Below are positions 10,471 through 62,484 of a DNA stretch of 64,000 nt, one piece after another (the stretch's first letter is position 1; the number at the start of each line of letters is the position of its first letter). The stretch is taken from contig OZ024740.1 in assembly GCA_964016885.1 (NCBI GenBank), positions 139,686,001 through 139,750,000 on the forward strand. The letters run 5' to 3'. The position numbers and the translations under genes are program-made. This DNA is from Eledone cirrhosa. Lineage: Eukaryota. The notes under the pieces are model-generated. The model saw nothing but the letters and a program-made list of their open reading frames with translations, did no database searches and was not told the origin of the DNA.

Positions 10471-10706
10471 AGGAACCAGTAAGACCCCGACGGCTGAGCT
10501 CAAACCGTTTCGACGGCTAATTCTGGACTAAAAAAAAATGATTTTTTTTTTTTTTTTTTTTTTTTTTAGTCCAGAATTAGCCGTCGAAACGGCTTGAGCT
10601 CAGCCGTCGGGGTCTTACTGGTTCCTATTACCCACTCTACTACCCTAAGTATTGAGTACTTTGGTGCGTTATGGTCCACCTGGTTCCTTACCACATTTCC
10701 TTCGTT
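10471..10706. mobile_element. Family A head-to-head foldback element in (TA)n
   Basis: Arm 10471-10530 is the reverse complement of 10568-10626, with a polyA/polyT centre; contains hammerhead 3' half GAAACGGCU(UGAGCUC)AGCCGUC. Confidence 0.9.
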
Positions 10707-11823
10707 ATATATATATATATATATATATATGCATATTCACAATAATGCTACAGAATGTTAGACATACACTACACCTATTTATAACAATGATAAACACAGA
10801 ACACGATATATCATCTTAGTAAAGATGCGTTACAGAATGCTGGCTTGTCAAAGATTCAAATTTCCGATGACTCGTCACATCAGTATTTTCTGTCTAGGGG
10901 TTTCCTTAATTCAACAACCTCAAATTTATAAAGCGATACCACCGTTTTCACTGTTTTTTATCGATTGTATCAGATCAAAGGGGAAAAGAATGTTGTTCTT
11001 ATTGATATTTTTATAGATTATTCTTCTAATTAAAAACTTTAAAAAAGTAGGATAATTAATTAGTTCAAAATAAAAATTGAAATAAAACAACAAACGAGAA
11101 ACAGCTCGCGCTATCTCCTTTACTTTTTTTATACTGGCTTCGTCATTGCACTGCGGCCATATTGGGGGACCGCCTTGAATTAATCGATTGTATCGATCAT
11201 AGCACAGACGCACGCACGCACGCACACACACACACACACACACACACACACACACACACACACACACATATATATATATATATATATATATATATATATA
11301 TGTGTGTGTGTGTCTGTGTGTCTGTGTAATTAGGTTGAAATAGGCTGCTTCTCCTAGCAAGTTTGTTACTCGCCAACAGTCTACCCTTTACTACTCTTCT
11401 GCATGACCGTAAAGCCACGTGATATTTTTCCCTTTCGAAAATTTTAGTTGTAACGATCAGTTGGAGGAATTTGTCCTTAAACTGAGGGAGTCCCTTGACA
11501 AGCCGTAACCTCACAATTTTGGTGCACTTTAATTGCACTTTGGCTGCATATCAGCCGGCGAAACTAAAGAAGTCGGGACTTTGAAGAAAATTAGATATAT
11601 TTTTGTCCATTTGCTCTTCATACTCATAATTATTCTATCTAGAGAGGACAGGATAGATACACTTGAGCACATATACAGAATCACACATACATATAAACAA
11701 TCATTAAGGCAGATATTTATACAAACAACCACACACAACCACCCCCGCCACAAACCAGATACTTTCGTGGGAAGTTCTTTACAATTGGATAAATAATGTA
11801 TACCCTTATTTGGACTAATTAAC

Positions 11824-11915
11824 ATCTCCTGATGAGACAACAAGTTAACCGCCAACGCATTTGCAATTCAATCTAGAACTAGCTGTTGAAACGGTAGGAG
11901 CTCAACCGTCGGGGT
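11824..11915 (+). ncRNA. Full type I hammerhead of family A
   Basis: AUCUC CUGAUGA GACA...UGUU GAAACGGU(AGGAGCUCA)ACCGUC GGGGU; downstream to about 12012 homologous to the family A tail. Confidence 0.85.
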
Positions 11916-12176
11916 CCTGACTCATTCATTTAACCATACTCTACTACTCCAAGTATTGAGTATTCCGATGAGTAATGGTCTAACCAGTTTCTTACTGAAT
12001 CCATCCTGATTTATTATATATCTATATATATATATATATATATATATATATAATATACATATATATATATTATATATATATATATATATATATATATATA
12101 TATACATTATGAAGAGAGAAGAAACATTTAGATATAATTAGTAATAAAATGTATCATACCTAAACTGCTCCTAAAT

Positions 12177-12266
12177 TCCTCGACTACGTAGTTTCGTGGC
12201 ATAAACAAAAACAATATATCATAAAGATATAGAGTCCCTGCGAGGTCTGCCGACTTATCAAGAGGA
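12177..12266 (-). ncRNA. Hammerhead with U3-A8 core variant (UUGAUAA)
   Basis: UCCUC UUGAUAA GU(C)GGCA...UGCCAC GAAACUACGUAGUC GAGGA. Confidence 0.8.
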
Positions 12267-58654: not shown

Positions 58655-59475
58655 TCATAAAACATGTCTATAGAATCACCAGATAAAATATATACCATTT
58701 CTTCTCCCAATTAGCATAATTAACCATATAAAAAATCGATTAGACCAAGCTATAAGAATAAAGGCTTCTATGAAGAAATCTCCGACAAATAACCGAAAGC
58801 AGCCCTTCGCGTCGGTTGCGACGGAGTATTTATCGACTATTTCGGCAGCGTGTTTGAATCGCTCAGATATACAGTCAACTAAATAGAACTAGGTGTAAAA
58901 TAAACTAGGAGAAAAGTGAACATATTTAGTTACCTCTACCATGGTTTCGTCCGCATTTTAAGATATCCCATAGCATCGGACACGATTCTTAGCCATTTTT
59001 TAATGTATTCTTGGCGCGATCACTTTGGAAAATTTATTGTCTAAATTTGAGCTAACTTCCTGAAGAGTCCGGTGCTCTAGGTGTCCGAAGCTATCGGATA
59101 TCTTAAAATGCGGACGAAACCATGGTAGAGGTAACTAAATATGTTCACTTTTCTCCTAGTTTATTTTACACCTAATTCTATTTAATTGACTGTATATCTG
59201 GTCGATTCATACACGCTGTCGAAATAGTCGATAAATACTCCATCGCAACCGACGCGAAGGGCTGCTTTCGGTTATTTGTCGGAGATTTCTTCATAGAAGC
59301 CTTTATTCTTATAGCTTGGTCTAATCGATTTTTTATATGGTTAATTATGCTAATTGGGAGAGGAAATGGTATATATTTTATCTGGTGATTCTATAGACAT
59401 GTTTTATGATATATAGCTCTGCTTATTTAATTTATTAACTCTTCATTGAGCCACAAAGTGACCCGTTGCAAAACA
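58655..59475. mobile_element. Family D large foldback (about 330-bp arms)
   Basis: 58655-58983 is the reverse complement of 59081-59410; sense arm continues to 59475. Confidence 0.93.
59055..59132 (+). ncRNA. Type I hammerhead ribozyme
   Basis: ACUUC CUGAAGA GUCCG...CGGAC GAAACCAUGGUA GAGGU. Confidence 0.9.
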
Positions 59476-59664
59476 CACACACACACACACACACACACAC
59501 ACACATATATATATATATATATATATATATATATATATATATATATATATATATATATATATATATATATATATATATATATATATACATATATATATAT
59601 ATATATATATATGTGCAAACCTTTATAAATATATATATATATATATTTATATATATATAGAGAG

Positions 59665-60358
59665 AGAGAGAATTAGTATATTTACCAACATATGCGTACA
59701 GATGTACACTAATGCTAGCAAATACATAAGTTATGTCATAGTACCTAGGTGGTTCAATGCAGGAGGATGCAGAACATTTATATGAAAGACGTAAAATAAG
59801 AAAATTAAAAATTAAAAATTAACTTACTTACTAAAATTGTTCTGCATCCTCCTGCATTGAACCACCTAGGTACTATGACATAACTTATGTATTTGCTAGC
59901 ATTAGTGTACATCTGTACTCATATGTTGGTAAATATACTAATTCTCTATATTTATCTCCAAATTATTTATTTCTTGAGCAAACCTGTCAAATCCACTACT
60001 AATGCAATGTAGTGGTAGTAGGCTTTTATCATTATACCACCCCACTCCTTCCGACTAGCCTCAGTGTCACGTGATTGATTCTTTAGAATCTGCCGTTTGA
60101 CCAGAGACAGTGAACTTTTTCAGTGCTATGGAATTCAATCCACCGAATTATTATTATTTTTATATGAGTCCCTAGTGTTCGCGCATTGCCTGGAGACTTA
60201 GCTGAGAATAGACTCCCTGATGACGTAATGAATTCTCGATGGTTACATTGCGTAACTATCTTTATCCCATTACAGAAACTAATTAGTTGGAGTGAAAATT
60301 TTAGTAAGTAAGTTAATTTTTAATTTTTAAAATTTTCTTATTTTACGTCTTTCATATA
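59665..60358. mobile_element. Family G foldback with circularly permuted 523-nt monomer
   Basis: 59665-59776 is the reverse complement of 59838-59948; 59779-59837 is the reverse complement of 60299-60358, joined directly to the monomer start. Confidence 0.9.
60212..60293 (+). ncRNA. Type I hammerhead ribozyme
   Basis: ACUCC CUGAUGA C-GUAAUG...CAUUAC-A GAAACUAAUUAGUU GGAGU. Confidence 0.85.
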
Positions 60359-62286
60359 TATATATATATATATATATATATATATATATATATATATATA
60401 TATATATATATATATATATATATATATATAAGCAATCAATGTTTATCGTTGATTGACCAACGGTTAAAATACAGATATAAATATATATATATATATATAT
60501 ATATATATATATATATATATATATATGGGTGTGTGTCCCTGTGTTTACGTTTCGTCTGTTTATATCCTGTAACTTAGCTCTTCCACAAAAAGGGATCCAC
60601 TAACGAAGTACTAGAAGTACTATACTTGAAGAAATAAATGCTGGGTCGATATGATCGACTAAATCAGGCCGGCTGTTTAATGACTGAAACCAATAAAAGA
60701 TAAATGTTAGATAAACATACATTTAGTTAAACTACATAATTTTATCTGCAAGAGAACCTCAACTAGGTTTTGTCATATTATCAAGAATACCTGCGTTTTC
60801 CTGTTCGCCCTACAGAGAGATAACGGGGTTTAGATCTACTTATAAAGACTGAAATGAGGAAGTGACCGCTCTGAAATCACGTGGAAAAAGACGTATAAAT
60901 TGTACAACGTGGCCCTAGAAAGACCATGTCTGATTAAAAGCTTGTGTGTAGCAAAATCTGTCCACACCTTAACCCCTGGGTGACATTTAACGGTCAATTT
61001 CTGAGTTATCTATTTTCGGGCGTAAACAGGTCTAAGAGTGGACGACCTCTAAAGATCAGCCCTTTGTTCTCAAGGCTTGGGGTCAGAGAAAGCAACATAG
61101 ATAAATAGCCTGCCTTGGACCAGCATAGCAGCAGTTTGGCGTGGTTCTTGATAGAGTAAACATGTAAAACATTTGCTTTCTACAGACCTCTTGTGGTCTT
61201 ACTGACTCTTACTTTCTTTTACTCTCTCTTTCTCTCAATCTCTATCTTTTGATTTCTGTCTTAACCAAGACTGTGAAGTTCATGAAGTTTTCTTGGTAAA
61301 TATAATTTAATTCTACTTTTACAAACACAAACAAAGAAATAACATCCATAATTCTTGTGTATTTTTTGTATAGATCCGGTATGAGCTATTTTCAATAAAT
61401 TAATAATATAGCGGTTTGGTGTCATCGTGGTTCATTTATATATATTCATTTTCTGCGTGATCAAGGAACTATCATATCATCACTATTTTATTGAACACTT
61501 ACTCACTTACCTGAATACATGCAACCTCTGGTCACACTGTATCACACAACAGTGGCCACACGACACAACAAGCTACAAATAAGTACACACGCAACAAACG
61601 AATCAACACCACAACACAATCAATTACCAACGCGACCATCAAAAATCATCGCTATATATGTAATTGTCACAGTACAATACATTGTACATTATATTACAGT
61701 GCGAGACAACAGAGTACAGTTCATGCCATGAGAACTGATCACCTGATGGCGAAATAGGAACGCCGTTTTCATACATGTCGTGTTTTGTGCATTTTAAACA
61801 CGGCGGAGCCCATCCCACTCAAAGTCTGACTTTGACCGATTACTTCCAAGGTTACCAACAACACCATTACGAATTCCACTTCTACCATCACCACCAACAA
61901 CAACATTACCCCCACTATTACCATCACACACATACATTCCCTTCATAGCACCTCAATCCCCGCTACGACAGTATTACTATTAAGAAAACAAAAAACAAAA
62001 CAAAACAAAAACTACAGTCCCCTCACACAACTATCCCTCAACACGTCATATTATGTGTACTAAGTTACCAGCAATAACGATATCTTGGTTGATTTGAGTT
62101 TGATAATTCTGCACTAGAAGGAACAGTGACCTCAATATATGGGGAAACTACAAACAAACATGATAATCTGAATGAGATACTGAGATATGTAGTAAGGTTC
62201 ACTGGGCCATGATTACAGTGTTCGAAATAAATTTATAATAGATATAGTAAATATGTGTGTTTGTATATATATATATATATATATAT

Positions 62287-62484
62287 AACGAAGGAAATGT
62301 GGTAAGGAACCAGGTGGACCATAACGCACCAAAGTACTCAATACTTCGGGTAGTAGAGTGGGTAATAGGAACAAGTAAGACCCCGACGGCTGAGCTCAAG
62401 CCGTTTCGACGGCTAATTCTGTACAGTACAGAATTAGCCGTCGAAACGGCTTGAGCTCAGCCGTCGGGGTCTTACTTGTTCCTA
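62287..62484. mobile_element. Family A foldback (opposite orientation to the 10471 copy)
   Basis: 62366-62424 is the reverse complement of 62426-62484; centre CTGTAC-A-GTACAG; TA tracts on both sides. Confidence 0.92.

Follow-up and report, generated by a model that had tools for sequence, protein, structure and literature searches.

Penelope-like elements generally show partial tandem copies, together with a 5'-truncated copy in inverted orientation and a tail at only one of the ends. How their inverted repeats, one-sided tails and microsatellite bias arise has been described as an open question (Craig et al. 2021, PMC8557442). One clade of these elements, Hydra, is defined by a C-terminal endonuclease (EN), RWK and DKT motifs, a CxCX5C linker, CxxC and CxH near E and N, and no CCHH, and its members insert into (TA)n, with one family (Hydra-1_Obim) coming from octopus (PMC8557442 and its supplement). 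Work with purified Poseidon PAc protein of Anolis (Frangieh et al. 2024, PMC11167929) has shown nicking and extension of both strands, and the reverse transcriptase (RT) has two start sites in agreement with the genomic tail. In the Penelope elements of Adineta vaga head-to-head is the commonest arrangement of the pseudo-long terminal repeats (pLTRs), one of the inverted pLTRs may or may not carry a tail, and self-priming has been proposed (PMC3846280). In twin priming of L1, cDNA synthesis on the RNA is primed from either side of the break, which results in a head-to-head inversion (Ostertag and Kazazian 2001, as summarised in PMC2246262). In this work we analysed a 64-kb stretch of Eledone cirrhosa DNA (hereafter the window; OZ024740.1 139686001-139750000, i.e. 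G000:C1:139686001-139750000 of the 3.0-Gb assembly), which is rich in microsatellites and holds more than 12 local foldbacks, assigned to families denoted by letters; loci retrieved from the assembly are denoted by L numbers. As judged by motifs, the foldbacks represent the 3' ends, made up of pLTR and hammerhead, of Penelope-like retroelements of the Hydra clade. They are insertions into (TA)n in which one arm ends at a fixed short site and its partner at a fixed long site, and they probably arise by twin target-primed reverse transcription (TPRT), a reading to which we give a probability of approximately 0.6.

A 21-mer of family A had 11,175 exact matches in the assembly (0 for the control), and upstream of it lies an open reading frame (ORF) of the RT–GIY-YIG type. 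A protein search gave 150 scored matches; many of these have open frames close to 784 aa in length, and some belong to tandem arrays with a 3.54-kb period. The 786-aa family A ORF contains YRDD and YIG motifs, carries its GIY-YIG endonuclease at the C-terminus and lacks CCHH (by eye), and in its translation (P0002) the motifs RWR, DKT, CNCPDRSIC (CxCX5C), CNLC (CxxC) and CKH (CxH) were located. Since these motifs match the Hydra definition, the element was identified as Hydra, whose target trait is also found here in the insertions in (TA)n. In pieces of the ORF, Pfam gave a weak GIY-YIG match under the cut-off (E 0.0045) and no RT family, and a sequence search with the ORF against solved structures gave no match. 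Two further families, represented by loci L192 and L201, have intact ORFs with RWK and CxCX5C, one of them being 40% identical to family A. The Penelope origin proposed in the earlier note was thus supported by ORFs of about 780 aa that are intact in three families. Family B was tied to a degraded Hydra-type ORF with DKT at one locus (L171); only A and B among the window families were connected to ORFs, and no Penelope ORF of the tested families is present in the window itself. The unit of family D is non-coding, stands in tandem and measures approximately 650-800 bp; with its type I hammerhead it resembles non-LTR retrozymes (bioRxiv 10.64898/2026.07.22.740005), but it shows the two-site head-to-head pattern described below, pointing to Penelope-type priming.

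Other traits of EN-bearing Penelope-like elements are also present, namely partial tandems forming pLTRs, an inverted 5'-truncated copy and a one-sided tail, and a putative type I hammerhead motif with its stems was recognised in families A, B, C, D and N. In comparison with the Hydra clade (PMC8557442), the elements share the C-terminal GIY-YIG domain, RWK/RWR, DKT, the CxCX5C linker, the hammerhead at the 3' end and the (TA)n targets, and they differ in their units of 3.0-3.5 kb, in a tail of 80-110 nt versus 30-40, and in the hammerhead core variant of family A. An assignment to Naiad was rejected, since Naiad has an N-terminal EN and no hammerhead, whereas the elements analysed here have their EN at the C-terminus and do carry a hammerhead. 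A derivative of a miniature inverted-repeat transposable element (MITE) or of Tc1-mariner, which would have equal terminal inverted repeats and a constant interior, was rejected as well, since here the arms are unequal, the centres are variable and the sequence is continuous with the RT ORF. Near-identical intact Penelope units stand in tandem in three families (G000:C1:91472000-91492000, with L151 and L152; G000:C4:204130500-204285000, with L191-L193; and G000:C2:338031500-338041499, with L201), indicating very recent activity. In family A copies, among them L151:4770-4800 on the minus strand, the hammerhead core reads TTGATAA or TTGAGAA in place of CTGATGA, which we take to be possibly a compensated 3-8 pair in a putative ribozyme; families B and C have the core CAGAAGA. 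RNA folding of the pLTR was no better than that of shuffles (z 0.12).

The arms of these elements are arranged head-to-head with great regularity. Using short patterns for the genome-wide counts, at least 5,864 head-to-head palindromes of family A were detected (exact 12-nt arms, centre of up to 10 nt). Among the 100 family A matches listed, all 26 neighbouring pairs within 400 bp were head-to-head, and within 4 kb there were 29 head-to-head, 2 direct and 2 tail-to-tail; among the 100 family D matches listed, pairs within 1 kb were 7 head-to-head and 0 tail-to-tail (by eye). An equal frequency of tail-to-tail arms, which the earlier note considered fatal to its model, was not seen in these pairs. 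One exception to the head-to-head layout is a palindrome at L054:1128-3509, with arms of about 1.2 kb around (TA)24, where two family B short ends are tail-to-tail.

Across families the ends fall at two fixed sites 80-110 nt apart, just 3' of the hammerhead. In family A these sites are 80 nt apart, and there were 10,358 exact matches to the short-end pattern and 22,549 to the long-end pattern, a ratio that says little since the two patterns cover different subfamilies. The strongest regularity, missed by the earlier note, is the exclusion of short-short and long-long pairs. It was established on retrieved loci and on coordinates listed at the start of contig C1. From 112 distinct head-to-head junctions of family A, 80 could be classified: 77 joined a long to a short end (59 from loci picked regardless of end type and 18 picked by their long end), 3 had an intermediate end, and none was short-short or long-long. 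De-duplication removed some adjacent family A pairs, among them that of L106, whose end is another TAT within the tail. The ends listed for the initial 26.8 Mb of C1 (48 short, 100 long) come from loci overlapping the 80-pair set; 29 of 29 of their pairs within 400 bp were long-short, and within 8 kb there were 34 long-short pairs, 1 long-long pair and 12 tail-to-tail neighbours. The same rule was found in two other Hydra families (5/5 and 2/2 classified pairs), in family B (13/13 by eye, six from loci picked by the long end) and in the family D and L pairs examined. Both sites also terminate ORF-bearing bodies, indicating that both are primary start sites, and insertions of 3-7 kb follow the same rule.

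In most families both sites were also found to match the target, including the long site, whereas the earlier note had only the short end in view. At the family A long site, the 16 loci in which an internal pLTR continues beyond it (of 20 full-length loci) all read TAT, which shows that both sites of this family are TAT. The L201 family has TA at its short site and TAT at its long site, the L192 family has ATAT at its short site, family B has TAT at its long site (one continuing copy) and family D has TATAT at both. A de novo set of 166 foldbacks with TA on one side was grouped into 50 clusters, 37 of them with a clean junction. Short ends matched (TA)n by at least 2 nt in 29 of these 37 clusters (chance 0.23) and by at least 3 nt in 21 (chance 0.11), random positions in the same arms serving as the null, which bears out the enrichment of TA at short ends expected in the earlier note. 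Beside (TC)n flanks, the end of the L192 family lies 5 nt upstream, at TCTC (L194, and L191 with L193, these two probably stemming from a single event), and this shift suggests that pairing matters. Of the priming at UA proposed in the earlier note, the presence of UA at both start sites is supported (families A, B, L201 and D). That base-pairing, rather than the protein, sets these sites is less secure, since no more than 1-5 nt can pair and not every site is precise.

At locus L095, family A is inserted in the TA run of another repeat, and 8 uninserted matches of that repeat (L029, L052, L083) retain the run, so that at this single site the target existed before the insertion. Creation of TA runs from nothing by the element is unsupported by this one empty-site comparison; lengthening of existing runs may still occur. 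A long end provided by a (UA)n tail of the RNA itself was ruled out, as tandem copies read on as TATCTAG.

In the favoured reading of twin TPRT, the GIY-YIG domain would nick both strands of the self-complementary (TA)n, and each nicked 3' end would pair over 2-5 nt with a UA-containing site presented by the protein. Each site would serve one strand, probably through two subunits that sit on a single RNA or on sister RNAs. The two cDNAs would be extended toward the RNA 5' end and then stop, and their ends would be joined by ordinary end-joining, either blunt, with 1-6 nt of overlap or with a short templated insertion. Mini-palindromes would represent abortive events, with both cDNAs stopping 50-62 nt upstream of the short site. 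Most mini arms end 52-62 nt upstream of the short site, in hammerhead stem II, where a TATA-like and an initiator-like word lie; the stop may reflect either run-off at the RNA 5' end or stalling. A single young haplotype was seen with a wide variety of centres, and also in copies extended far 5' into the ORF, and the palindromes are accordingly made anew.

Microhomology at central junctions, anticipated by the earlier note, did not emerge as a rule: among 93 centres, an overlap of at least 2 nt was found in 17, and the others had 1 nt of overlap (14), a blunt joint (14) or inserted or mismatched bases (48), some of these templated from nearby sequence. Of the earlier picture of two cDNAs joined in the middle, therefore, the two cDNAs are favoured over self-copying by pair types and 5' extents, and joining by microhomology is not borne out as a rule. 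Several observations weigh against twin TPRT. Arms overlap in 68 of 71 minis, which requires strand displacement if a single RNA was used, and deletions at palindrome centres after insertion could imitate asymmetry at the 5' side. Eight of the 37 clusters match (TA)n by less than 2 nt, and in the L192 family all 3 copies have an imprecise long site that matches by 1-2 nt. Short ends of family L lie at TA in 5 of 10 cases, with a 1-nt match in 4 and one of 1 nt or less in 1 (by eye), and families C, G and L together with the L192 long site are poor fits to the TA rule. The de novo clusters are partly non-independent and partly outside Penelope, 13 of the 50 were excluded because their junctions were unclean, and 32 of the 112 family A junctions were not resolved.

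In L1 twin priming the position of the second site varies, and there is hardly any overlap between the pieces. Here, unlike in L1, both sites are fixed and the arms mostly overlap; non-overlapping pieces of one RNA, as expected from twin priming of the L1 type, were found in only 3 of the 71 minis. Insertion therefore works like L1 twin priming but differs from it. With Poseidon PAc (PMC11167929) the elements share two internal start sites whose spacing equals the tail; both strands are used in Poseidon, for which a dimer is predicted. They differ from it in that Poseidon sites are reported to be non-homologous to the cut DNA and to be used alike by both strands, whereas here there is mostly a match of 2-5 nt and each site is used once per insertion. 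The head-to-head inverted pLTRs with palindromic junctions resemble those of Adineta vaga; there, however, they are explained by self-priming on an antisense template, copies are few, and a microsatellite match at the ends is not reported in the available text of PMC3846280. The basic layout of the foldbacks is already in the literature, where inverted pLTRs in head-to-head order, a tail on one side only and insertion into (TA)n have all been described (PMC3846280, PMC8557442). For the Hydra clade, no description of the exclusive long/short pairing or of UA at both sites was found in the available text of PMC8557442. A literature search, with most subscription papers (including older Penelope reviews on the tail) outside its coverage, returned neither twin priming for Penelope nor a long/short rule. 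The exclusive pairing and the target-matched start sites therefore appear to be new. The rule of one long and one short end with UA at both makes the mechanism of Penelope insertion testable, and the intact ORFs and tandem arrays of several very young families give direct predictions for the existing Poseidon in vitro assay. The thousands of short near-perfect palindromes from one family would in addition be a source of hairpin RNA and of DNA instability.

A narrower form of the favoured reading, which we advance tentatively and with more doubt than belief, is an obligatorily asymmetric double TPRT, in which one ribonucleoprotein would act on both nicked strands using different UA sites of the same RNA, the trailing RT displacing the leading cDNA. 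If true, inverted pLTRs, one-sided tails and thousands of mini-palindromes would be one product, and the asymmetric rule may account for the same features in all endonuclease-bearing Penelope elements.

The alternative that survives best, although we consider it unlikely, also involves two cDNAs, with start sites set by protein and RNA structure alone and the TA match as a by-product of AT-rich RNA or of trimming or repair to the nearest TA. It would agree with the non-homologous initiation reported for Poseidon (PMC11167929) and with ends that are imprecise and match by 0-1 nt, as in family L and for the L192 long site. Moreover, 5' ends also meet (TA)n at an internal TA (window positions 43299 and 22027), so TA-guided joining is not specific to priming. 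Such protein-set starts are opposed by an enrichment far over the composition-matched null, by a family A site region that is not AT-rich and yet has exactly TAT at both sites, and by the move to the TCTC site next to (TC)n flanks.

Rather improbable is a snap-back mechanism, akin to the self-priming model of PMC3846280, in which a long-site cDNA folds at its 3' end and copies itself, the copy then joining the other target end at the first TAT. Arms were compared in 69 pairs (8 of 77 were excluded for gaps or misalignment), and in 55 of them both arms share their subfamily variants in a common diagnostic haplotype (shuffled mean 12.5, maximum 23). This agrees with a single RNA but also with self-copying, a point which again counts against the favoured reading. 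The commonest short centres can be drawn as small hairpins, and 5' extents lie within 5 nt of each other in 40 of the 71 minis. Snap-back does occur at such sites, as TA-centred inverted copies of flanking DNA exist beside insertions (35-50 bp at window 58370-58517 and about 10 bp in the flanks of L009); these look as if a free (TA)n end had been extended after snapping back. On the other hand, self-copying predicts frequent run-on into the (TA)n flank, giving long-long palindromes (0/80 seen), and other TA sites in the tail are rarely used. In 19 of the 71 minis the short arm extends beyond the long arm on the 5' side by more than 5 nt and so holds sequence missing from it (the long arm reaches further in 12), and the 3 pairs without overlap are equally awkward for it: copying of the long cDNA cannot yield either class unless the centre was later deleted, which favours two cDNAs. 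Two different common haplotypes were present in 4 of the 69 pairs, 2 of them differing at three sites; arms are apparently mostly from a single source, sometimes from two sources or converted later. Finally, the use of the short site to terminate ORF-bearing bodies also speaks against snap-back.

Mobility of the palindromes as ready-made units, either from a palindromic master copy or as MITE-like DNA transposons inserting at TA, is very improbable. Thousands of similar short palindromes do lie at TA and some centres recur, but this explanation has already been largely refuted by the young haplotype with its many centres and long extensions into the ORF, by unequal arms made of pLTR pieces of an RT-encoding element, and by the 3-7 kb insertions that obey the same rule.

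Palindromes are a known type of artefact. Raw reads of three other samples with the same species label were inspected for both ends and for centre joints. TA loose ends lay at exactly the long site in 7,398, 8,050 and 10,149 reads and at exactly the short site in 2,907, 2,596 and 2,649, and a small number of reads crossed the centre with a strand-switch joint; most molecules end right before the centre, probably at a restriction site. An assembly or amplification artefact, the objection that the earlier note had raised against itself, thus has a practically negligible probability: although these are not amplification-free long reads, they contain the exact two sites and the centre joints, and the arms of the window foldbacks (90-99% identity) differ by substitutions and have family-fixed unequal ends.

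Foldbacks were present in the window at every position for which the earlier note had claimed one. Family A forms mini-foldbacks at 10472-10705 (short arm 10472-~10539, minus strand; A/T-run centre; long arm ~10565-10705, plus strand) and at 62288-62482 (long arm 62288-62421, minus; short arm 62425-62482, plus), both with (TA)n on each side. To these, reading of the sequence added a micro-foldback absent from the earlier note at 31679-31779, with a short arm of about 17 nt (minus) and a long arm (plus). A lone family A tail without an inverted arm lies at 43299-43361 (plus), its 5' end being that which meets (TA)n at an internal TA, and an older A-type copy with a complete hammerhead (core 11829) and a long end lies at 11829-12022 (plus). 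Family B has foldbacks at 42145-42708 (long arm 42145-42390, minus; short arm to 42708, plus) and 44123-45187 (short arm from 44123, minus, holding another repeat at 44480-44670; long arm 44944-45187, plus), and a long-end copy at 16131-16598 (plus) beside which no adjacent inverted arm was detected. The family C feature at 22027-22652 consists of a sense 5' fragment (22027-22101), an inverted long arm to ~22327 and a sense short arm to 22652, with the hammerhead pointing outward. Family D has foldbacks at 56335-57015 (short arm 56335-56754, minus; long arm from 56753, plus) and 58656-59659 (short arm from 58656, minus; long arm from ~58990, plus, running through an internal (CA)n(TA)n; hammerhead core 59060). 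The family E foldback (45311-46233) has its short arm on the left and its long arm on the right, with strand sense not assigned since no hammerhead was found in it; the same order of arms is seen in a foldback taken as family G (15395-15830), the long arm of which ends at (CA)n. The family L mini-foldback (27488-27681) has its long arm at 27488-27617 (minus), its short arm to 27681 (plus) and its centre within the hammerhead, and the family N foldback (40252-40653) has its short arm from 40252 (minus), its long arm to 40653 (plus) and hammerhead cores at 40349 (minus) and 40467 (plus). In a further foldback, at 59660-60353, the left arm leaves via (TC)n into (TA)n and the right arm via a hammerhead (60217) to (TA)n.

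The details claimed for these foldbacks held for most families. The short arm stops at TA where the long arm continues in A (TTCC|TAT, both copies), B (ATAAA|TAT at 42708), C (TAGGC|TAT), D (TTATGA|TATA, both copies), E (GTTGA|TATA), L (ACTTC|TA) and N (TTATAT|TA), and G matches TA only beyond one mismatch. Most arms run into the microsatellite; the exceptions are the left end of C, where the 5' fragment is joined to TA, and the long arm of G. Reuse of the same breakpoints agrees with the fixed ends, but the break of the B copy at 44121 lies about 7 nt before that of the copy at 42708, and family L short ends scatter. In families A, B, C, D and N a script detected a putative hammerhead that points outward, and in L one was recognised by eye. 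The script placed type I hammerheads outward in 8 of the 50 de novo clusters and inward in 0, and found no motif in the other 42, which include E and G. An Rfam scan of the window gave no match at the gathering score.

The tail of family D holds its own (CA)n(TA)n, which is very variable in length and draws further insertions (56753-57015, 59415-59659, L211-L240), and a diverged family-D-like copy with a hammerhead core at 31501 lies at 30964-31600 (minus). An inverted repeat at 37540-38551, with 216-bp arms that are 98% identical and a 529-bp spacer, has a TA match of 1 nt only, and no hammerhead was found in it. A SINE-like (short interspersed nuclear element) repeat of about 190 bp, with tandem and inverted copies, occurs at 6597-7544, 13684-14155, 39979-40167 and 44480-44670 and has no relation to the TA rule. 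Pieces resembling ORFs of other retroelements were recognised by eye at 43490-43981 (plus) and 24021-24520 (plus), a restriction-like endonuclease end and an RT piece, and a 118-aa frame at 32419-32775 (minus) looks by eye like the end of a PIF1/Helitron helicase. Additional hammerhead-like cores of other families are located at 1180-1203, 2810-2835, 3170-3193, 9692-9714, 17164-17193, 23499-23536, 26509-26533 and 46392-46428.

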